Origin: an uncultured Gammaproteobacteria bacterium
GTDB lineage: Bacteria > Patescibacteriota > Microgenomatia > UBA12405
Reading direction: 5' to 3'
DNA: 41,232 nucleotides
NCBI GenBank assembly: GCA_964405765.1
Contig: CAYOPC010000004.1
Location: 1 to 41,232, forward strand
Positions 10,220-32,376 of this stretch are shown here, piece by piece. The translations under genes and the position numbers were made by a program. Within the stretch, counting starts at the first letter, position 1, and each line of letters starts with the position of its first letter. Under the pieces are notes generated by a model, which worked only from the letters and a program-made list of their open reading frames with translations, ran no database searches and had not been told where the DNA came from.

Positions 10220-11086
10220 TTATAATTCTTTGAGTTTGATACCGCGGGCTTCGTCTTTGGCTTCGATTAATTCAAGGTATTTTTCGGTAGTAGAAATACG
10301 TTTGTGACCGACGACTTGAGAGACAACATCAATAGGAACACCGGATTTGAGTTGAAAGACAATAAAAGTGTTACGTAAGTCGTTAACTTTGATGTCTTTA
10401 AGATCAGCTTTATTAAAAAACCGATTTAAAAGACTTCTGATATTTCTGGCTAATAAAGTTTTGCCGGTTTTGGTAACAAAAACATTTTTTGAGCGGCCAG
10501 GATAGCGGCCTTCGGCTAAGTATTTTTGGAGGGCAAGTTTAGCAGAATTGTTTAACGGGACGTTTCTAGACGGATGGCTCTCATAACTTTCAATAAAAAT
10601 ATCGTTATCTTTGATATTGTCTAATTTTAAGTTTTCGATTTCTTTGATACGAAGTCCGGCCTGAAGCATAAGTTCAACGATAGCAGTAGCCCGAGTGTCA
10701 TTACGGCAGGCATCACGAAGTGAACGGTATTCAATTGGTTTTAAGATTTTTGGAGTATCATTTTCATATTTGGGATGTTTAACTTCAGTTGACGGATCAA
10801 TTTCAATTAAGGCTTCATTTTTTAAGAAAGAAAAAAAATTCTTAATAGAATTAAGCTTACGGGAAATTGATTTGGCAGTATAGTCGTTTTTAGCTAAATC
10901 TTCCTTGAAATCGTTAATATGTTCCGGAGTAATGAGATTAATATCTCCTACTCCTCTGGCTGACAAAAAAGCAAACAATTGGTTGATATCACCCTTGTAG
11001 GCTACAATAGTATTAGTGGACTTGCCTTTCTGGGTAAGCGCCTGAGTGAAGGTATTTAATGAACTATTGAAAGATAAATCAGCCAT
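10220..11086 (-). CDS. tyrosine recombinase, XerC/XerD family
   Basis: N-terminal SAM-like domain (NTIVAYKGDINQLFAFL). Catalytic region has AGLRIKEI and VVGHKRISTTEKYLEL (the R..H-x-x-R..Y pattern). Confidence 0.85.
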   Translation of the reverse strand: MADLSFNSSLNTFTQALTQKGKSTNTIVAYKGDINQLFAFLSARGVGDINLITPEHINDFKEDLAKNDYTAKSISRKLNSIKNFFSFLKNEALIEIDPSTEVKHPKYENDTPKILKPIEYRSLRDACRNDTRATAIVELMLQAGLRIKEIENLKLDNIKDNDIFIESYESHPSRNVPLNNSAKLALQKYLAEGRYPGRSKNVFVTKTGKTLLARNIRSLLNRFFNKADLKDIKVNDLRNTFIVFQLKSGVPIDVVSQVVGHKRISTTEKYLELIEAKDEARGIKLKEL

Positions 11087-11570: not shown

Positions 11571-11640
11571 TGCGGGGTAGTGTACGGCTGCACGTGAGGC
11601 TCATAATCTCACAGACCTGGTTCAACTCTAGGCCCCGCAA
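11571..11640 (+). tRNA. tRNA with anticodon CAT (Met or Ile2)
   Basis: Hand fold: acceptor TGCGGGG/CCCCGCA, D arm GTGT-ACGGCT-GCAC, anticodon arm TGAGG-CTCATAA-TCTCA, T arm CCTGG-TTCAACT-CTAGG, discriminator A. The D loop is short and no CCA is encoded. Confidence 0.6.
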
Positions 11641-11650
11641 CAAACAAAGA

Positions 11651-11678
11651 GGTCGTCATTAGTTTGACGGCTTTTTTG
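11651..11678 (+). terminator. rho-independent terminator after the tRNA
   Basis: GGTCGTCA-TTAGTT-TGACGGCT followed by TTTTTTG. Confidence 0.55.
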
Positions 11679-11704
11679 TTGAAAAATATTTTCAGAAGGC
11701 ATAT

Positions 11705-11732
11705 TTGACTATGCCCGATATATAGGTATAAT
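11705..11732 (+). promoter_or_regulatory. near-consensus sigma-70 promoter at the left edge of the islet
   Basis: TTGACT, 16 nt, TATAAT. Confidence 0.5.
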
Positions 11733-11790
11733 ACACCAGATAATACTATGTTACTCGATATAAGTATTATGAAATTAAGCACTTTAAAAT

Positions 11791-11847
11791 CTAGAAGGGA
11801 TGTATTTGGGTCATAAATTAAAAATGATTTAAATACATCCTTTCTAG
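11791..11847 (+). repeat. 17-nt inverted repeat (long hairpin) in the islet 5' leader
   Basis: CTAGAAGGGATGTATTT ... AAATACATCCTTTCTAG with one mismatch and a 23-nt spacer, immediately upstream of the AAGGAGG ribosome-binding site. Confidence 0.7.
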
Positions 11848-11877
11848 GAAAGGAATACTTTGAAAGGAGGGAAAGCG

Positions 11878-12159
11878 GTGGAAAGTTGGATAAGATTTGC
11901 CCAACCAACCTTGATTCCAGCGGTGGAATGGGTGCTGGCGGTACTTTTGCTGACAGTGGTAGCGGTGGTGATAGCAAAAAATTGTACTGACGATAGGCTG
12001 ATTAAGAGACGAATAATCTTAATCGGTACGGCTATCATCTGTATAATTATTGTGACTACTGCCGTGAGGCTGATTGAAGCATGGATAACCAACTCTACTG
12101 GCCGAACGACAATTGACACTCAATCAATCAACTACGACCGGTTTTCGCCAGAAAAATAG
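11878..12159 (+). CDS. small two-TM membrane protein
   Basis: GTG start 6 nt after AAGGAGGG, and two hydrophobic helices. GC-rich codon usage matches the following gene. The tracked ORF starts at a TTG at 11860. Confidence 0.5.
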   Translation: MESWIRFAQPTLIPAVEWVLAVLLLTVVAVVIAKNCTDDRLIKRRIILIGTAIICIIIVTTAVRLIEAWITNSTGRTTIDTQSINYDRFSPEK

Positions 12160-12183
12160 GAAAATAGAGAGAGGTATAAGGCA

Positions 12184-13137
12184 ATGAAGAAGTGGAAATC
12201 ATTCCTGGTTCTGGTCCTGACGGTGGTGATTGTTCTGGCGATGACAGCCTGTAGTGTCGGTAACTATGTGAACATTCCTTCCGGATACGTGGGAAAAATT
12301 CTGAGACCGACCGGTTGGGACGAGGATTGGTTGACGGCGGGTCAGGTTGATCTGGGAATTGCCAATAATAATGGTAGTTACAATCAGCTTGTCTTGCTAC
12401 AGACTACCAGCGAGACTTATCTGGAGGCATTTGGTTCGATCGGGAGTTTTACTGATGGTCAGGATCATAGGATTTTGACACAGGACGGTGTGCCCTGTGA
12501 AGTCAACGTGACACTGAGAATGATTGTTCCTGAGGATAACGATTCCCGGGATGCAATTTTGGCTCAGGTGAGTCCGAAGCAGCTTTACAGCAACCTATCT
12601 ACAGTTACCGGTATAACCGTTTCGGATATCTATTTGAAATTCGCCCAATCGGAGGTAAGAAGCGTAATTCGAGCAACTTTGGCAATGTACGAAAGCTACA
12701 ATGCCATTTATGCCGATTACGCCAATGTTTCTGATAAGTTGGGTGAGAAAATCGGTGTGATATTCGATAAGGCTGGCGTGCCATTGAAGCTAATGCAGGT
12801 GGCTCTGTCGAATGTGAAACCTGACGAGACAGTGTGGTCGGCAAAGAATCAAAACGCAGCGGCGGCATCACAAGTATCGACCATCCAAGAGGTTGGTAAG
12901 GCAATAGAGGCCAACCCGGGATATCTGGAGTACATGAAGTGGCAATATCTTAAGGATATTGCTCAGACAGGAACTAATGTAACTATCGTTATCGGTGATA
13001 GTGGTGACAGCAACAATGCAGCGAATGACTTTGCGGCAGCGCAATATGTCATTGATAAACTGGAGGAGAGACTTCAGTTGCGCCAACCTCAGCCCCTGCT
13101 GAACAATCAAAGTAAGACATCTAGGGCTCTGGGGTGA
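12184..13137 (+). CDS. SPFH/band-7-like lipoprotein
   Basis: Signal peptide with a lipobox-like LAMTAC. The mature part begins NIPSGYVGKIL.., like SPFH-domain N-termini. It has a central alpha/beta segment and an Ala/Gln-rich helical tail (NQNAAAASQVSTIQEVGKAIEANPGYLEY). Confidence 0.55.
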   Translation: MKKWKSFLVLVLTVVIVLAMTACSVGNYVNIPSGYVGKILRPTGWDEDWLTAGQVDLGIANNNGSYNQLVLLQTTSETYLEAFGSIGSFTDGQDHRILTQDGVPCEVNVTLRMIVPEDNDSRDAILAQVSPKQLYSNLSTVTGITVSDIYLKFAQSEVRSVIRATLAMYESYNAIYADYANVSDKLGEKIGVIFDKAGVPLKLMQVALSNVKPDETVWSAKNQNAAAASQVSTIQEVGKAIEANPGYLEYMKWQYLKDIAQTGTNVTIVIGDSGDSNNAANDFAAAQYVIDKLEERLQLRQPQPLLNNQSKTSRALG

Positions 13138-13214
13138 GAGTATGTGGAAACACAAACTCTTTACCCGGGGCCCTAATTAATTAAAATATTGGTATAATTT
13201 CTGGTACAAATCAA

Positions 13215-13288
13215 GGCAGGGTAGCTCAGCTGGTTAGAGCGTAGCATTCATAACGCTAAGGTCGCGGGTTCGAGCCCCGCCCCTGCTA
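13215..13288 (+). tRNA. tRNA with anticodon CAT (Met or Ile2)
   Basis: Cloverleaf GGCAGGG-TA-GCTC-AGCTGGTTA-GAGC-G-TAGCA-TTCATAA-CGCTA-AGGTC-GCGGG-TTCGAGC-CCCGC-CCCTGCT-A. There is one A:C mismatch at 31:39, and a TATAAT box at 13193. Confidence 0.8.
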
Positions 13289-13293
13289 CACAT

Positions 13294-13328
13294 TAGATAT
13301 TAGATGATAGATCTTAGATCGTAGAAAA
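13294..13328 (+). repeat. five tandem heptads TAGATNN
   Basis: TAGATAT TAGATGA TAGATCT TAGATCG TAGAAAA, lying between two tRNA genes. Confidence 0.7.
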
Positions 13329-13337
13329 TTAAAATAA

Positions 13338-13391
13338 GGGTATGTAGCTCAGTTGGTTAGAGCAGTCCGAAATTTCGGACGAGTCCATGGT
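13338..13391 (+). pseudogene. 5' portion of a tRNA-like gene (acceptor 5' strand to T-stem 5' strand), truncated
   Basis: GGGTATG-TA-GCTC-AGTTGGTTA-GAGC-A-GTCCGAAATTTCGGAC-GAGTC-CATGG, then unrelated sequence. There is no matching 3' acceptor strand until 13552..13558. Confidence 0.6.
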
Positions 13392-13423
13392 TATATTAAG
13401 ATATATGGATACTTTAAAAATTT

Positions 13424-13497
13424 GGATGCATAGCTCAGTTGGTTAGAGCACCGATCTTATAAGTCGGGGGTCCATGGTCCGAGTCCATGTGCATCCA
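13424..13497 (+). tRNA. tRNA-Ile (anticodon TAT)
   Basis: Cloverleaf GGATGCA-TA-GCTC-AGTTGGTTA-GAGC-A-CCGAT-CTTATAA-GTCGG-GGGTC-CATGG-TCCGAGT-CCATG-TGCATCC-A. Confidence 0.8.
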
Positions 13498-13502
13498 CAA
13501 AA

Positions 13503-13559
13503 TGGTTAGAGCAGTCCGAAATTTCGGACGAGTCCATGGTCTGAGTCCATGCATACCCA
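13503..13559 (+). pseudogene. 3' portion of the same tRNA-like gene (D-loop to 3' end), lacking a 5' acceptor strand
   Basis: Repeats 38 nt of 13354..13391 exactly, then continues CTGAGT-CCATG-CATACCC-A. That supplies the T loop, T stem and an acceptor strand complementary to GGGTATG at 13338. Confidence 0.6.
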
Positions 13560-13719
13560 CCCGTGGTACTGAAAAATATTTTGCTTGTAAATATATCCCC
13601 CTCTTTCATTCGATCAAGGAAATCTACTATTATCTTGAATTAAGCAGGGTCAACAGGTCTGGAGTCTCCGCCAGAAGCGGACAGGCATGCATGCCCACAA
13701 AAAAATTAGTATCTAATAT

Positions 13720-14139
13720 TTAGATTGCTAAGAGAACGAAGCCACCGGTCATGAGAATTCCAGCTATAATGGTTTTCCAAGTAAAAGTTTCGTGGAAGAA
13801 AAATACTCCTAGTATGGCTGAAAATAGGGGATAAAATAATGTCATAAGAGAAGCCAAAGTTAGTGATGGAGCCTTTTGAAAGCCATAAATATATAAAAAT
13901 TCGGCAACAACTAACCAAATAAAAGCACACAGAATAAAAGGCCAGATATTTTTGAAGGTGAATTGACCGATGGTATTTTTGAAGCCGATAAATAAAATCG
14001 GCAGAAAAATTAAACCGCTAATGACCGCCATTAAGCTACTAACGAGTAATGGATTGTAGTTGTTTAAAAATTTTCTGATTAAAACTCCACCAAAAGCATA
14101 AGCTATCTGAGCAAATATAATTAAAATTAGTCCAAACAT
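13720..14139 (-). CDS. EamA/DMT-family small membrane transporter (single EamA domain)
   Basis: 139 aa with 4-5 TM helices. The N-terminus LIIFAQIAYAFGGVLIRKFL is typical of EamA domains. Confidence 0.6.
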   Translation of the reverse strand: MFGLILIIFAQIAYAFGGVLIRKFLNNYNPLLVSSLMAVISGLIFLPILFIGFKNTIGQFTFKNIWPFILCAFIWLVVAEFLYIYGFQKAPSLTLASLMTLFYPLFSAILGVFFFHETFTWKTIIAGILMTGGFVLLAI

Positions 14140-15154: not shown

Positions 15155-15267
15155 AAGTTTATTGATAGTTAAATTTTAACATTAAGAAAAAAGATTACTC
15201 CGATAAATCGGAGTTTGATAAATAGGCAAAATTTCTTCGTCTTTAACTTGAAATTTAGTCCTATTTA

Positions 15268-15423: not shown

Positions 15424-15475
15424 AAAACCCACCCCCTCCGAAATTTCGGAGACTCTCCCTTGATGAAGGGAGGGC
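15424..15475 (+). repeat. palindromic repeat unit (type E-like)
   Basis: AAAACCCACCCCCTCCGAAATTTCGGAGACTCTCCCTTGATGAAGGGAGGGC. Its first hairpin holds the 14-mer TCCGAAATTTCGGA, which is also found in the tRNA-like gene at 13366 and 13515. Confidence 0.8.
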
Positions 15476-15537: not shown

Positions 15538-15613
15538 ACACCTTAGTTTATAAGAGCCGAGGTCAGGTAGTCCCGCAGCGGCGGGACGAAGGGGCGCTAG
15601 GCAGACAAAAATA

Positions 15614-20782: not shown

Positions 20783-21928
20783 ATGGAGATAATTGATATT
20801 AAAAATAACTATAATCAAGTAATAAAAAAAACAGCTGAAATAATTTTGGCTGGTGGATTAGTAGTGTTTCCGAGTGATACGGTTTATATTTTGGCAGTGG
20901 ATGCGACTAACGAAAATGGAGTAAAAAAGTTACTCGAATTTAAAAATAGGTGGACCGGAAAAGCCATTTCGGTAGCCGTGTTGGATGAGAAAATGGCTGA
21001 GGATTATGTGGTGTTAAATGAAAACAGCAGAAATATTTATGAAAATTTGTTGCCGGGACCGTTTACTATTGTAAGTGAAGGCAAGCATCAAGTAGCTGCC
21101 GGAATTGAGGCGGAAAATGGAACTTTGGGAATAAGAATTCCGGATAATAAATATATTCATGATTTGGTGGAATTGGTGGGTAAACCAGTGACGGCAACTT
21201 CGGCAAATTTGTCAGGGAGGACACCGAATTATTCGATTCAAAGTTTTTTGAGGCCATTGTCAAAAAAGAAAAAAGCTATGATTGATTTGATAGTTGATGG
21301 CGGTAAATTGCCAAAAAATAAACCCTCAACGGTGATTGATGCGACTGAATCGGAAATAAAAATTTTAAGACGAGGAGATTTGATTACTGGAAAAACTACC
21401 AGTTTCATTAGCAAGTCGGAAAAAGAGACAGAAAAGATTGCGGAGTTTTTGTTGAAAAGATCCAATCTTCCCCCTTCCCCCTTCTTTCACAAGACGGGGG
21501 TAAAACAAAATAAGCCGTTGGTGTTTTTATTGAGCGGAGATTTGGGTTGCGGAAAGACAGTTTTTAGCCGGAAAATAGGACATTTATTGGGAGTAAAGGA
21601 AAAGATTACTAGTCCAACTTATATGATTTATAATGAGTACAAAACCCTAACCCCCTCCCCCTTTCCCTTGACAGGGCAAGGGGAGAAAATGATCAAATTT
21701 TTACATATGGATTTGTATAAAATTACATCGGAAAAAGATTTGGAGGAAATAAAATTTCTTACTCTATTTTCTGAAGATACAGTCAGTTGTATTGAATGGC
21801 CGGAACAAATGGGAGAAAAATTTTTGAAAAAATTGAGAGAAAAAACTAAGGTAGTTTCGGTGAATTTTGAATATATAGATCAGGAGACGAGAAGTATTAG
21901 TTTCTCAGCTGATCAGTTGGTCAGATAA
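20783..21928 (+). CDS. fused L-threonylcarbamoyladenylate synthase (TsaC/YrdC domain) and t6A ATPase TsaE
   Basis: The N-terminal half has the YrdC/Sua5 pattern (GGLVVFPSDTVYILAVDA, TATSANLSG, PSTVID). The C-terminal part has the TsaE P-loop GDLGCGKT and SPTYMIYNEY...HMDLYK. I place the start at the ATG at 20783, because the 38 upstream codons are repeat-derived. Confidence 0.75.
   Translation: MEIIDIKNNYNQVIKKTAEIILAGGLVVFPSDTVYILAVDATNENGVKKLLEFKNRWTGKAISVAVLDEKMAEDYVVLNENSRNIYENLLPGPFTIVSEGKHQVAAGIEAENGTLGIRIPDNKYIHDLVELVGKPVTATSANLSGRTPNYSIQSFLRPLSKKKKAMIDLIVDGGKLPKNKPSTVIDATESEIKILRRGDLITGKTTSFISKSEKETEKIAEFLLKRSNLPPSPFFHKTGVKQNKPLVFLLSGDLGCGKTVFSRKIGHLLGVKEKITSPTYMIYNEYKTLTPSPFPLTGQGEKMIKFLHMDLYKITSEKDLEEIKFLTLFSEDTVSCIEWPEQMGEKFLKKLREKTKVVSVNFEYIDQETRSISFSADQLVR
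21462..21510 (+). repeat. palindromic repeat unit (type A) inside the tsaC-tsaE ORF, in frame
   Basis: CCAATCTTCCCCCTTCCCCCTTCTTTCACAAGACGGGGGTAAAACAAAA, translated NLPPSPFFHKTGVKQN. Confidence 0.9.
21641..21689 (+). repeat. palindromic repeat unit (type C) inside the TsaE domain, in frame
   Basis: AAAACCCTAACCCCCTCCCCCTTTCCCTTGACAGGGCAAGGGGAGAAAA, translated KTLTPSPFPLTGQGEK. Confidence 0.9.
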
Positions 21929-22851: not shown

Positions 22852-24123
22852 ATGAAAATATTGGCAATAGAGACGAGTTGTGATGATACTTGCGCGGCTG
22901 TTTTGGAAAACGACCGAGTGCTGTCAAACGTGATTTCATCGCAGACTGATTTGCATGCCAAATGGGGCGGAGTAGTGCCGGATATTGCTAAAAGAGCACA
23001 TACGGAGAGAATTGAGGCAGTAATTGCGGAAGCATTAAAAAGAGCAAAACCTTCCCCTTCCCTTGACCCTCCACTTCGGCGGGCAGGCAGGGTGGGGCAT
23101 AAATTATCCCCTGAAGAAATAATTGAGAGAGAAGTTAAAAATATTGATGTGATTGGGGTGACACAGGGGCCGGGGTTGGCAATTGCTTTGGGGATTGGAG
23201 TAAATAAAGCCAAAGAACTGGCGAAAAAATATAATAAAAAATTGGTGGCGGTAAATCATATTGAGGGGCATATTTGGGCAAATTTTTTGAAAAATAAAAA
23301 GGGAAAACCGGAAAGAGAATTGGAATTGCCGGCGATGGCATTGACGGTGTCAGGAGGACATACAAAAATAATACTAATTTCTAATAACCAATTTCTAAGT
23401 CAAAACCTAGAAGAACTCAATCTTCCCCCTTCCCCCTTCTTTCACAAGACGGGGGTTAAAACAAACCCTTCCCAAACCCTTCCCTTGACAGGGCAGGGCT
23501 TAAAACTCAATCTTCCCCTAACCCCTTCTTTAACAAGACGGGGAATAAAACAGAAGTTAATTTATACGGTTGTTGGAGAGACGTTGGATGATGCGGCGGG
23601 AGAGGCTTTGGATAAAGCGGCAAAAATGTTGGGGTTGGGATATCCGGGCGGACCGATTATAGAAAGATTGGCGAAAGACGGTGAGATAAATTTCTTGGAT
23701 CTTCCCCACCCACTGGCTGACAAAAAAATATTGGATTATAGTTTTTCGGGTTTAAAAACCAGTTTTTATTACAAAATAAAAGATTGGCCAAAAGAAAAAA
23801 TTTATCAAAATTTGAATAATTTGGCGGCGACTTTTCAGAATGCAGTGTTGGAAACATTATTGAGAAAATATAAATTGGCCATAGCTAGATACCAACCAAA
23901 AACGTTGCTAGCAAGCGGCGGAGTGTTGGCAAATTTGGAATTGAGAAAAAGGTTAAGAAAATTAGCCAAAGAAGTTAATTTACCAATTTATATGCCGGTC
24001 CATAAAAATTTAAATACAGATAATGCGGCCATGGTTGGAAGAGTGACATATAATAAGGCACTGATGGGAGAATATGTTGAGGATATAGACGCGTTGGATA
24101 GAGACCCGAGACTTACTATTTAA
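22852..24123 (+). CDS. tsaD: tRNA N6-adenosine threonylcarbamoyltransferase TsaD, carrying in-frame repeat insertions
   Basis: MKILAIETSCDDT, GVTQGPGL, HIEGH, SGGHT, GETLDDAAGEALDK, GYPGGP, FSGLKT. 423 aa, against about 340 aa for typical TsaD. Confidence 0.9.
   Translation: MKILAIETSCDDTCAAVLENDRVLSNVISSQTDLHAKWGGVVPDIAKRAHTERIEAVIAEALKRAKPSPSLDPPLRRAGRVGHKLSPEEIIEREVKNIDVIGVTQGPGLAIALGIGVNKAKELAKKYNKKLVAVNHIEGHIWANFLKNKKGKPERELELPAMALTVSGGHTKIILISNNQFLSQNLEELNLPPSPFFHKTGVKTNPSQTLPLTGQGLKLNLPLTPSLTRRGIKQKLIYTVVGETLDDAAGEALDKAAKMLGLGYPGGPIIERLAKDGEINFLDLPHPLADKKILDYSFSGLKTSFYYKIKDWPKEKIYQNLNNLAATFQNAVLETLLRKYKLAIARYQPKTLLASGGVLANLELRKRLRKLAKEVNLPIYMPVHKNLNTDNAAMVGRVTYNKALMGEYVEDIDALDRDPRLTI
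23046..23097 (+). repeat. palindromic repeat unit (type C with nested hairpin) inside tsaD, in frame
   Basis: AAAACCTTCCCCTTCCCTTGACCCTCCACTTCGGCGGGCAGGCAGGGTGGGG. Compare 29123..29184 and 31459..31520. Confidence 0.85.
23416..23552 (+). repeat. three abutting palindromic repeat units (A-C-A) inside tsaD, in frame
   Basis: CTCAATCTTCCCCCTTCCCCCTTCTTTCACAAGACGGGGGTTAAAACAA / AAACCCTTCCCAAACCCTTCCCTTGACAGGGCAGGGCTTAAAA / CTCAATCTTCCCCTAACCCCTTCTTTAACAAGACGGGGAATAAAACA. Confidence 0.9.
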
Positions 24124-24170
24124 TTAAGAATTAATAATTAATAGTTAATAATTAATAGTTAAGAGTTAAT
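24121..24170. repeat. AT-rich TAATTAA-type motif block
   Basis: TAATTAAGAATTAATAATTAATAGTTAATAATTAATAGTTAAGAGTTAAT. Related blocks at 24518, 26693, 31181 and 40292. Confidence 0.75.
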
Positions 24171-31577: not shown

Positions 31578-32035
31578 GGAGATGTATTGCATCGACGGAG
31601 CATGAACTTTAAAAAACGGCAAGCCGACTTTGATCCATTGAGTCGTTTCGTCCATAGGACGATCAGCCTCTGGCTGAAAACAGGGTTAAAACAAAAAATG
31701 CTAAAGAAAAACTTAGCAAGTTAGCTACCGATTTCACTGCCTATTTAGGTAAGGTTGCCGGTACTTCTTATCAACCAGCTTTGGCTGTTTGCTAAGAGAC
31801 TCATCACTTAGTTTTCTGTTTCGAGGGGAATTGGGTGGTGTAAATTAAATCGAAATGCAATCTCGATCTTCTCGGTTAGATCGTGGATTAAAGCGAGGGG
31901 TAATGCCCTCAACAATCGACATCCCGACACATTTTATGAATTTCTGTCGTCGGGAGTGTAGGTCAAAATTCTTTAAGCTTGTAGATGTTTTTTTGAGTCT
32001 GCTTTCGGACCCGGGTTCGTTACCTGGCATCTCCG
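31578..32035 (+). ncRNA. ssrA: tmRNA (SsrA)-like RNA
   Basis: 5' GGAGATG pairs with 3' CATCTCC. The 5' box GCATCGACGGAG resembles the tmRNA GGATTCGACGGG box. T arm is CCGGG-TTCGTTA-CCTGG. An internal frame ends ..YQPALAVC-TAA (stop at 31793..31795). smpB lies 4.2 kb away. Confidence 0.72.
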
Positions 32036-32040
32036 CCTTC

Positions 32041-32087
32041 GTCCCGCAGTAGCGGGACTACGGCGTGACGCAGTCCGCTTTTTTTTG
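32041..32087 (+). terminator. hairpin(s) plus T-run downstream of ssrA
   Basis: GTCCCGC-AGTA-GCGGGAC, then ..GTCCGC followed by TTTTTTTT. Confidence 0.45.
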
Positions 32088-32109: not shown

Positions 32110-32376
32110 GTGTCAGAATTATTTATATATTGGGTTTATATATTGAAATGTAGTGATAATGGATTTTATGTTGGATGTACTGATGATTTAAAGAAAAGGA
32201 TAGAAAATCATAAAAATGGTGAAGTTAAAGAAACGAAATATAGATTACCAATAACTTTAAATAGTTATTTTGGTTTTAAAGAGAAACAAATTGCTTTTAA
32301 TTTTGAAAAGTATTTAAAAACAGGATCAGGTAGAGCTTTTGCTAAAAAGCATTTCAGGATTATGGTCACTGAGTGA
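32110..32376 (+). CDS. GIY-YIG nuclease-domain protein (UPF0213/YhbQ-like)
   Basis: YWVYILKCSDNGFYVGCTDDLKKRIENHKNG is a GIY-YIG core. 88 aa with a GTG start. Confidence 0.72.
   Translation: MSELFIYWVYILKCSDNGFYVGCTDDLKKRIENHKNGEVKETKYRLPITLNSYFGFKEKQIAFNFEKYLKTGSGRAFAKKHFRIMVTE

Follow-up and report, generated by a model that had tools for sequence, protein, structure and literature searches.

A disrupted tRNA-Ile(UAU) gene very probably harbours a cassette of GIY-YIG nuclease and replacement tRNA that has lost its nuclease gene

Why would a bacterial chromosome keep a tRNA gene that is broken in two around a second, complete tRNA gene? The question is raised by contig CAYOPC010000004.1 of assembly GCA_964405765.1, of which positions 1 to 41,232 were analysed (hereafter the window). 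The window is a chromosomal segment of ~37% G+C, and the closest named homologues of its tryptophanyl-tRNA synthetase (TrpRS) come from Candidatus Shapirobacteria, a member of the Candidate Phyla Radiation (CPR)/Patescibacteria. The broken gene, here called X, is a disrupted resident tRNA-Ile(UAU) gene that lies in two parts (13338-13391 and 13503-13559). Comparison with related loci leaves us highly confident that the whole feature is a derivative, without open reading frame (ORF), of a conserved cassette in which a GIY-YIG ORF is joined to a tRNA gene. With more reserve, we favour the view that this cassette is a compact selfish element of the homing type that colonises the tRNA-Ile(UAU) gene, and that the window holds a decayed remnant of it from which the ORF is gone.

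An earlier description of this DNA, made from the sequence alone (the original prediction), had outlined the local arrangement, and most of its structural elements stood up to checking. The duplication of 38 nt is real, both copies being 100% identical, and each copy contains the perfect 16-nt palindrome that had been reported (Table 1). Neither half of X was called as a tRNA by ARAGORN or Rfam, even in a permissive Rfam scan of 13150-13750 that admitted E-values up to 10, in keeping with the statement that neither copy is complete alone. The repair that had been suggested in silico, in which 13338-13391 is joined to 13541-13559, does give a 73-nt cloverleaf in ARAGORN. The program labels the joined gene ‘tRNA-?(Ile|Asn)(at)’ and draws a 5-bp anticodon stem with a 6-nt loop to which no anticodon can be assigned, as the claim of a non-canonical loop had implied. 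X thus has neither of two features expected of a functional tRNA, a contiguous cloverleaf that is recognised as such and a 7-nt anticodon loop with U33. The enclosed tRNA-Ile(UAU), likewise predicted, was called by both programs as tRNA-Ile(TAT) and has the properties of a functional tRNA, with 67.2 bits against RF00005 (threshold 29) and the anticodon loop CUUAUAA.

What X was before its disruption can be read from its relatives. The syntenic locus (TrpRS, EamA, tRNA cluster, DivIC, Xer, DUF87) was compared across retrieved loci of GTDB relatives or metagenome contigs, which are identified by L-numbers (L001 etc.). Where a tRNA-Ile(UAU) could be called, most relatives have a single ordinary gene at this locus (GGGTATGTAGCTCAGTTGGTTAGAGCACCGATCTTATAAGTCGGGGGTCCATGGTCCGAATCCATGCATACCCA). 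An intact tRNA-Ile(UAU) with a GGGTATG/CATACCC acceptor stem occupies the syntenic site in L001-L005, L013, L017, L020, L021 and L023, and positions 1-27 of X match the intact resident gene of cassette-free relatives at 100%. Because its acceptor stem is exactly that of the tRNA-Ile of these relatives, X is the original resident tRNA-Ile(UAU) gene and no paralogue. The label ‘paralogous’, which the original prediction had given to the enclosed tRNA, has accordingly been dropped: the enclosed tRNA is a cassette-borne replacement and the split gene is the original. The GGATGCA/TGCATCC acceptor stem of the replacement was found in 3 of the 28 tRNA-Ile(UAU) genes in a GTDB survey of the window and Shapirobacteria loci, namely in the window, L022 and L029, all of which have the nested structure. 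In the metagenome set, a tRNA of this type flanks the ORF in L093 and L100. The replacement tRNA of the window is identical to the cassette tRNA of L029 at 75 of 75 positions and 97% identical to that of L022.

The cassette is present in full in the GTDB-genome loci L022, L029 and L033 and in metagenome loci that were inspected in full, e.g., L094-L100, L103, L105, L108 and L142. It runs from a 5' part of X that ends in ..CCATGGTT, through a spacer of ~31 nt, a complete tRNA-Ile(UAU), a gap of 0-3 nt and an ORF of 88-90 aa, to a 3' part of X made up of D loop (TTGGTTAGAGCA), palindromic arm, T arm and acceptor 3' strand; the stop codon of the ORF is the TAG of GGTTAG in the D loop of that 3' part. 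When aligned, the cassettes of L100, L029 and L022 and the window run collinearly, save for the ORF, which the window lacks. Its 5' part breaks off in the T loop after GGT(T), and the break point, directly after ..CCATGGTT, is common to the window, L100, L029, L022 and L014, while the layout of its 3' part matches that of the 3' X in L022, L029, L033 and metagenome loci such as L092-L100. Where the relatives read ..TGCATCCACA, followed by the ORF from its GTG or ATG start to ..AAAATTGGTTAG and then AGCA, the window reads ..TGCATCCACAAAATGGTTAGAGCA. A six-frame hmmsearch of 13300-13700 found no remnant of a GIY-YIG gene, and the window copy is to that extent a derivative and not a complete member. 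The 111-nt insert in X, which contains no ORF, is the cassette with its nuclease gene deleted, and the 38-nt duplication is the overlap, from D loop to T loop, between the two parts of X.

Table 1. Coordinates of the split gene, its insert and the adjoining features in the window
Feature	Coordinates	Strand	Description
X, 5' part	13338..13391	+	GGGTATG acceptor strand, D arm, palindromic arm, variable loop, T-stem 5' strand
Direct repeat, copy 1	13354..13391	+	X positions 17-54, D loop to T loop
Palindrome GTCCGAAATTTCGGAC, copy 1, replacing the anticodon arm	13365..13380		Perfect over 16 nt
Cassette spacer upstream of the replacement tRNA (..ATGGATAC.TTTAAAAATTT)	13392..13423	+	Aligns with the ~31-nt spacers of L100, L029, L022 and L014
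Cassette tRNA-Ile(UAU)	13424..13498	+	Acceptor GGATGCA/TGCATCC; T loop UCCGAGU; ARAGORN and Rfam
Deletion scar AAAA	13499..13502	+	Where relatives carry the ~270-nt GIY-YIG ORF; from alignment
X, 3' part	13503..13559	+	D loop (TGGTTAGAGCA), palindromic arm, T arm, CATACCC acceptor strand and discriminator A
Direct repeat, copy 2	13503..13540	+	38 nt, 100% identical to copy 1
Palindrome GTCCGAAATTTCGGAC, copy 2	13514..13529		Perfect over 16 nt
Spacer of the older ‘spacer + tRNA 3'-half’ unit	13560..13641	+	~81-82 nt; core CCCCTCYTTYATTCG..AAGGAA..TATCTTGAATT
Degenerate tRNA-Ile 3'-half copy	13642..13698	+	Anticodon-stem 3' strand to 3' end; hairpin TCCGCCAGAAGCGGA (13667-13681) inserted in the T arm
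Extended -10 box TGGTATAAT	13190..13198	+	Upstream of the tRNA cluster; read from the sequence
tRNA, anticodon CAT (Met, or Ile2 if lysidine-modified)	13215..13289	+	ARAGORN and Rfam, 65.5 bits

Several stages of decay can be seen side by side. The window has lost the ORF and kept both parts of X; L014 has lost the ORF and the 3' part and kept the 5' part; and in L002, where the ORF and the 3' part are also lost, the 5' part is degraded further. Units of X form tandem arrays in L029, L095, L097, L099, L103, L108 and L142. ARAGORN labels complete units ‘tRNA-???’, and copies of X are often more degraded still, with T arms replaced or broken and the acceptor strands of upstream units unpaired.

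The missing ORF belongs to a nuclease family with a regular relation to tRNA genes. In the relatives it matches PF01541 (GIY-YIG) with E-values from 1e-10 to 2e-12, and residues Y6, Y17, G19, R27, H32 and E64 are invariant in 33 homologues; we read this set as covering the tyrosines of the GIY and YIG motifs together with the Arg and Glu of the active site. In a profile search of the PDB, the closest solved structures were the UPF0213 proteins 1zg2 (BH0048) and 1ywl (EF2693), with E-values of 4.5e-10 and 7e-8, followed by SLX1 (~5e-5) and the catalytic domain of I-TevI. NCBIfam contains no model for the family. The ORFs encode 84-98 aa, in which Pfam finds the catalytic domain only and no separate DNA-binding domain. 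A profile search with the nuclease retrieved 80 metagenome loci, in which 70 non-redundant ORFs were counted, and 58 of these 70 directly abut or overlap a tRNA gene. In configuration A (27 ORFs), the start lies at most 15 nt after a same-strand tRNA (Ile-UAU, Ile-GAU, Val, Thr, Ala or Asp); in configuration B (30 ORFs), the ORF overlaps or abuts a downstream tRNA (Ala, Val, Asp, Pro, Thr, Arg or Ile). A single ORF shows both configurations, and most of the remaining 12 are at contig ends or beside pseudo-tRNA tails. An overlap is present in 21 of the 30 configuration-B loci, usually of ~10 nt, which places the stop codon at the TAG of tRNA positions U8-A9-G10; TAG is the stop codon of 52 of the 70 ORFs.

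Most ORFs that come after a tRNA are then followed by a palindrome-armed pseudo-tRNA, both in CPR and in at least one metagenome-assembled genome (MAG) of Planctomycetes. In many configuration-B loci the ORF starts exactly where a palindrome-armed 5' X breaks off in its T loop, and in some (e.g., L118, L132, L141 and L163) a 3' X is also found after the functional tRNA. The Planctomycetes MAG has the cassette architecture with the arm CCCCGATGTTACATCGGGG and a tRNA-Arg, and a Cyclobacteriaceae contig carries a tRNA-Leu, then the ORF, then a duplicated tRNA 3' end. The family had no tblastn match in 50,697 phage or 72,556 plasmid records; a phage, plasmid or defence origin of the nuclease was rejected on this result together with the lack of PHROGs and PADLOC matches.

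Two variants of the architecture deserve mention. At 1440-1830 of L153, a GIY-YIG ORF overlaps a tRNA-Val at its start (12 nt) and a tRNA-Ala at its end (10 nt), both functional, and an ORF that fills the whole spacer between two tRNA genes in this way may be the simplest state of the family. In L174 (1400-1960), L175 and L176, tRNA-Ala(UGC) is split inside the anticodon, and the insert is a GIY-YIG ORF between perfect 17-nt inverted repeats; the stop codon lies within the right repeat, and a functional tRNA-Ala flanked by an inverted repeat of its own comes next. The protein of this type (P0165) is listed in 105 contig-index blocks and is hence common. Inverted repeats around the ORF were considered as a general rule and given up, being confined to L174/L175 among ~70 loci.

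The palindromic arm is as regular a part of the cassette as the ORF. In a test anchored on the ORF stop codon alone, a perfect hairpin of at least 6 bp was found to start 4 nt after the stop, which corresponds to tRNA position 27, in 27 of 29 configuration-A loci as against ~1% of random sequences. The arms are of 14 kinds, with double compensatory changes at positions 1, 7, 8 and 9 of the stem and a conserved outer core, NTCCGA..TCGGAN', for which the variant cores TCCCGA and GGCCGA stand in some of the 27. In pseudo-tRNAs that descend from Ile, Val and Thr genes, a hairpin with the conserved core takes the place of the anticodon arm; in those from Ala and Arg genes, the variants TCCCGA and CCCCGA do so. 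Because hairpins of one kind replace the arms of different isoacceptors, the hairpin belongs to the element and not to each tRNA, and the suggestion that an anticodon arm had been exchanged for a mobile hairpin has thereby gained support. Many arms are palindromic to their very centre, with 0-1 unpaired bases. Since RNA folding cannot select for central palindromy, this symmetry suggests a role at the level of DNA, as a binding or cleavage site of a dimeric protein or as joined element ends, which seems to fit better than an RNA hairpin. The palindrome might block regeneration of the resident gene, serve a dimeric nuclease as its binding or cleavage site, or represent the two ends of a tiny element joined together.

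The same core is seen in further hairpins, which lie in the D loops and T arms of X copies and in intergenic DNA, in the window at 15198 and 15436. In 383 kb of other loci (L044-L091), most of them from outside CPR, no hairpin of this core was found. The recurrence of the 14-mer TCCGAAATTTCGGA, noted in the original prediction, was reproduced: it occurs at 13366, 13515 and 15437, three times where shuffled sequences led us to expect 0.49, and 1 of 100 shuffles reached three. The copy at 15437 is probably a further member of the hairpin family. A 22-mer specific to X (GCAGTCCGAAATTTCGGACGAG) had no match in viral contigs or JGI metagenome contigs, so the exact palindromic arm of the window seems to be confined to this strain; a 27-mer of the cassette tRNA had no match in viral contigs. 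Many copies of X carry, in addition, a two-hairpin insertion in the D loop (TCCGATG..CATCGGAG, then TGGGGATAAACCCCA), as in L014 (4905-5005), L002 (7640-7760), L022 (5960-6020), L097, L101, L105, L106, L108 and L112, and in L106, L108 and L112 the nuclease ORF reads into this module.

As with the role of the palindrome, we infer the mobility of the cassette. The carriers (the window, L022, L029 and L033) are scattered on a tree of TrpRS, a single marker gene, where non-carriers are the sisters of the window (L012/L013), of L022 (L021) and of L029 (L034), and L033 groups with L027, which has an unsplit X-like unit. Presence and absence at the orthologous site are thus incongruent with the TrpRS tree, which lends moderate support to mobility. 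Because the cassette-free loci are clean and a palindrome-armed X cannot revert, repeated losses would be less parsimonious than gain. X has the host-type acceptor and the functional tRNA the GGATGCA type in the window, L100 and L022, the pattern expected from co-conversion if the interior of the resident gene was replaced; in L029 the 3' X likewise has the host-type acceptor, but GGATGCA is found in the 5' X copies. All 5' parts of X that were examined stop in the T loop or directly after it.

A possible course of events can be drawn from these patterns. The nuclease would cut tRNA genes that have no cassette, probably within the T loop or close to it, where the 5' parts of X all end, and repair from a cassette-bearing copy would install the cassette, which is homing in the manner of phage SegB. 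The resident gene would be destroyed in the process, and the passenger tRNA would maintain the decoding of AUA. Recombination between the direct repeats could not restore a working resident gene, as X has a palindrome instead of an anticodon; and because the resident gene could not be regenerated, the tRNA part of the cassette would be retained after the nuclease gene had decayed. X in the window is then most likely a non-functional relic.

A number of points weigh against a homing cassette. No protein of the family is known to cleave DNA or to have a target site, and mobility rests solely on a patchy distribution and one single-gene tree. The functional tRNA of the cassette itself holds every sequence presumed to be the target, and the carrier allele should therefore be open to cleavage in its turn. 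At 88 aa, the protein lacks the DNA-binding domain to which SegB and I-TevI owe their specificity. The spacers of the window and L029 are ~60-65% identical, as judged by eye, and no recent transfer is demonstrable. A duplication of 38-50 nt is not a normal product of simple homing. Finally, the palindrome is strictly conserved, as is the two-hairpin D-loop module at distant loci; this could mean that X has a function, and a pure relic would predict neither.

Such a function might be that of a tRNA-like RNA, a decoy or non-decoding species having been among the readings of the original prediction. It could be either a nuclease decoy or antitoxin-like regulator (cf. the repeat arrays of type III toxin-antitoxin systems) or an element for the processing or stability of the cassette transcript. 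The hairpin is always present, at the same tRNA position and with compensatory changes; many loci have between one and four X units in tandem ahead of the nuclease ORF; and the two-hairpin module is conserved across loci whose nucleases are 52-86% identical to the query. The ORF, moreover, always has its start flush with a tRNA(-like) 3' structure and ends inside one, which suggests that tRNA-type processing sets the ends of the mRNA. We nevertheless consider a functional RNA unlikely: arms that are palindromic through the centre are not selectable by RNA folding, GIY-YIG enzymes are DNA nucleases, X copies are often degraded beyond the state seen in the window, both halves persist in the window although the adjacent nuclease gene is gone, and neither half is tRNA-like in covariance or ARAGORN scans. 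About as improbable, in our estimation, is that the palindromes represent the two ends, joined together, of a minute transposon-like element that inserts in tRNA loops without homing by repair, with the GIY-YIG ORF as its autonomous form and the 16-20-nt hairpins as miniatures or excision footprints. The ORF between 17-nt inverted repeats in L174/L175 speaks for it, as the ends of these repeats (TCCCGAAATT..AATTTCGAGGA) resemble the palindrome of the window and a second inverted repeat flanks the functional tRNA, and so do the presence of same-core hairpins in D loops, T arms and ordinary intergenic DNA and their absence from the 383 kb of L044-L091. However, among ~70 loci only L174/L175 have inverted repeats that flank the ORF, in Shapirobacteria the palindrome does not enclose the ORF, duplications of the target site with a fixed length were not observed and GIY-YIG enzymes are not known transposases.

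Two further explanations leave the nuclease out of account. tRNA genes are classic integration sites, and the original prediction had offered an att-like duplication from integration and excision as one possibility. This was correct in that the repeat flanks an insertion into the resident tRNA-Ile, but the repeat is internal to X (positions 17-54), neither junction restores a tRNA, no integrase lies between the copies, and the intact inserts of relatives carry the GIY-YIG gene instead. Were the repeats attL and attR of an element that entered by integrase-mediated, site-specific recombination and was then almost wholly deleted, the tyrosine recombinase gene at 10220-11086, 2.3 kb away, could have supplied the activity, and the separate, integrase-like duplication of a tRNA 3' half downstream (13642-13698), which has 38-41-nt repeats in relatives, would be in line with it. 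The recombinase and its DivIC and DUF87 neighbours are conserved in cassette-free relatives, however, for which reason this XerC/D-like gene is probably a housekeeping Xer; on the same synteny it was rejected, with the DUF87 gene, as integrase cargo. We hold integration of this kind to be very doubtful. Still harder to credit is an assembly artefact in which two tRNA-Ile alleles were stitched in tandem via a shared k-mer, a reading that the original prediction had also allowed. An exact 38-nt repeat is within the k-mer range of assemblers, and no independent contig that spans both copies was retrieved, look-ups with the EamA and SPFH proteins giving only short Logan contigs that end at the repeat. 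Short contigs of the same strain from other samples, however, break exactly at the repeat edges, as they would at a true repeat (L006 starts at 13503 and L007 at 13511, the latter being the position expected for an assumed assembler k of 31). In addition, the nested layout recurs, with sequences and repeat lengths that vary, in more than 30 assemblies that are independent of one another and come from various projects and assemblers, and the spacer and junctions of the window are homologous to those of ORF-bearing cassettes.

For a homing cassette of the kind we favour, the closest analogue appears to be SegB of phages T4 and T6. It is a free-standing GIY-YIG homing endonuclease in a tRNA gene cluster, with a 27-bp recognition site that contains an 11-bp T-stem-loop motif of such genes; it carries adjacent tRNA genes along into relatives that lack the nuclease and, as reported in 2026, drives the recombination-dependent tandem amplification of tRNA segments (PMC2330249; PMC13096335). 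Here, too, the T loop is where the 5' X ends, the ORF and tRNA genes travel together, and the ORFs are set among tandem arrays of tRNA fragments, the arrays of X resembling the segmental amplification that SegB drives. SegB differs in being phage-borne and, at ~220 aa, in having a C-terminal DNA-binding region, whereas the cassette ORFs are chromosomal and comprise the catalytic domain only. SegB neither splits a tRNA gene nor overlaps one with its start or stop codon, and is not accompanied by a palindrome-armed pseudo-tRNA; the cassette adds a passenger replacement tRNA in a CPR chromosome. In size and in consisting of the GIY-YIG core only, the cassette proteins are like the UPF0213/YhbQ-type proteins 1zg2 and 1ywl, both named ‘hypothetical’ in their PDB entries, and like the domain of SLX1, a eukaryotic structure-specific nuclease that needs SLX4. 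We know of no described link between the Bacillus or Enterococcus members of UPF0213 and tRNA genes.

Integrative elements at tRNA genes leave duplicated tRNA 3' segments as att sites. The cassette shares with them the insertion in a tRNA gene, the flanking direct repeats of tRNA sequence and the fact that a working tRNA remains. It differs in that its insert contains no integrase, that its repeat extends from D loop to T loop and not from anticodon or T loop to the 3' end, and that a whole separate tRNA is supplied while the resident gene is not restored. The older 3'-half duplication (13642-13698, and the tandem units of L012 and L016) does look like this class. In the same host group, rRNA genes harbour homing endonuclease genes and insertion sequences (PMC11270868). 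According to that report, these are likewise selfish, nuclease-encoding insertions in essential genes for structured RNA, and they sit inside the rRNA genes, whereas in the present case the broken gene has been given up in favour of a substitute and the nuclease is of the GIY-YIG type.

The architecture of a tRNA-linked GIY-YIG cassette was not found described in the searchable literature, which does not of itself prove novelty. We suggest, tentatively, that UPF0213-type GIY-YIG proteins might be the nucleases of a widespread and undescribed class of selfish elements that home on tRNA genes, characterised by a split resident gene, a palindromic arm, a replacement tRNA and dependence of the host on the cassette, and present in CPR, at least in Planctomycetes and, in a looser form, in Bacteroidota. 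The palindrome would then be the DNA site of the dimeric nuclease itself or the joined ends of the element. The split tRNA is one decayed case of a regular architecture that extends across tRNA isotypes and ties functionally uncharacterised GIY-YIG proteins to tRNA genes. Should the cassette prove mobile, it would represent a new strategy, in which an essential and highly conserved RNA gene is invaded without an intron by destroying the gene and bringing a spare, and it could explain both the horizontal spread of tRNA acceptor-stem variants and the fragments and tandem arrays at the tRNA loci of small CPR genomes. The cassettes are relevant to annotation, as their pseudo-tRNAs are missed or miscalled, and they provide a substrate hypothesis for UPF0213 proteins, namely tRNA-gene DNA and the TCCGA..TCGGA palindrome.

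Downstream of X, the third, degenerate copy of a tRNA 3' end that had been predicted is real and spans 13642-13698. It is part of a unit, composed of a ~81-nt spacer and a 38-nt tRNA-Ile 3' half (positions 37-74), that follows the tRNA-Ile gene and is present in three tandem copies in L012 (2400-2718), two in L016 (6470-6641) and single copies in L020 (5005-5135) and L002 (7450-7545). The conserved core of the spacer can also be given as CCCCTCCTTTATTCG..TATCTTGAATT. The degenerate terminal copy is old, since its variant CAACAGGTCTGGA(A/G)TC is shared with the terminal copy of L002 and a close variant, CCACAGGTTTGGAATC, is found in L012. The stretch 13560-13698 records an earlier event of another kind at the same gene, which could have been of integrase type or driven by a nuclease.

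Three tRNAs were called in the window by both ARAGORN and Rfam: CAT at 11571-11641, CAT at 13215-13289 and the replacement tRNA-Ile(TAT). The second of these is the conserved left neighbour of the tRNA-Ile locus and is syntenic in L002-L005, L020 and L022. The extended -10 box upstream of it is a probable promoter for tRNA-Met, the two halves of X and tRNA-Ile; the sequence tttttggtataattcgag also precedes the orthologous tRNA-Met in L003, L002 and L020. The two CAT tRNA genes are ~70 nt apart in L003-L005 as against ~1.5 kb in the window, where an SPFH/Band 7 gene (12184-13137), a small ORF and a 24-nt inverted repeat (11791-11847) lie between them; the stretch 11642-13214 is another insertion into the same tRNA cluster. 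Intergenic tandem repeats of heptamers (TTAGATC, TAATTAA, CTTCCCC) and a 45-nt repeat with an embedded hairpin occur at 13293-13325, 24121-24170, 21467-21484 and 23414-23551, and repeats of the TTAGATC type are also seen upstream of tRNA-Ile in relatives. The heptamers had hinted at a cyanobacterial origin of the DNA, which was discarded in view of the Candidatus Shapirobacteria homologues of TrpRS. In the replacement tRNA-Ile(UAU), the T loop (~13477-13483) has a C at position 55 in place of the near-universal U. The T loop of tRNA-Ile varies between GGTTCGA and GGTCCGA in relatives (e.g., L003, 6450-6525), and GTCCGA is a half-site of the palindromic arms; as pure speculation, this might be the mark of an arms race against a T-loop-recognising nuclease.

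Protein genes of the window include those for TrpRS, a second class I aminoacyl-tRNA synthetase, L25 and the Xer-like recombinase, and Rfam places a tmRNA gene at 31578-32038. At 461 nt this gene is longer than the Rfam model (374 positions), with large insertions and a low average posterior (0.66). An intact GIY-YIG ORF of 88 aa (32110-32376, plus strand; PF01541, E = 9.5e-12) begins 71 nt downstream of the tmRNA gene, the product of which has a tRNA-like end. It is of UPF0213 type, aligns with the tRNA-linked GIY-YIG family at 97% hhalign probability, and its protein was found in identical form on three ENA contigs from other samples. The genome of the window thus still encodes one nuclease of the family, which might act in trans. 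A hairpin, GTCCCGCAGTAGCGGGAC (32041-32058), lies 2 nt past the tmRNA 3' end and is of the same type as the arms of some pseudo-tRNAs, e.g., in L162.

The 460-nt intergenic region between TrpRS and L25 (15155-15613) contains G+C-rich hairpins at 15197-15214, 15436-15451 (with the 14-mer), 15455-15472 and 15570-15587. In relatives, this interval holds peptide deformylase alone or together with tRNA-Trp and others (PALP, DUF3800, Bro-N), none of which is present there in the window. On the minus strand, 15436-15451 and its flanks bear a loose likeness to a degraded palindrome-armed pseudo-tRNA unit.

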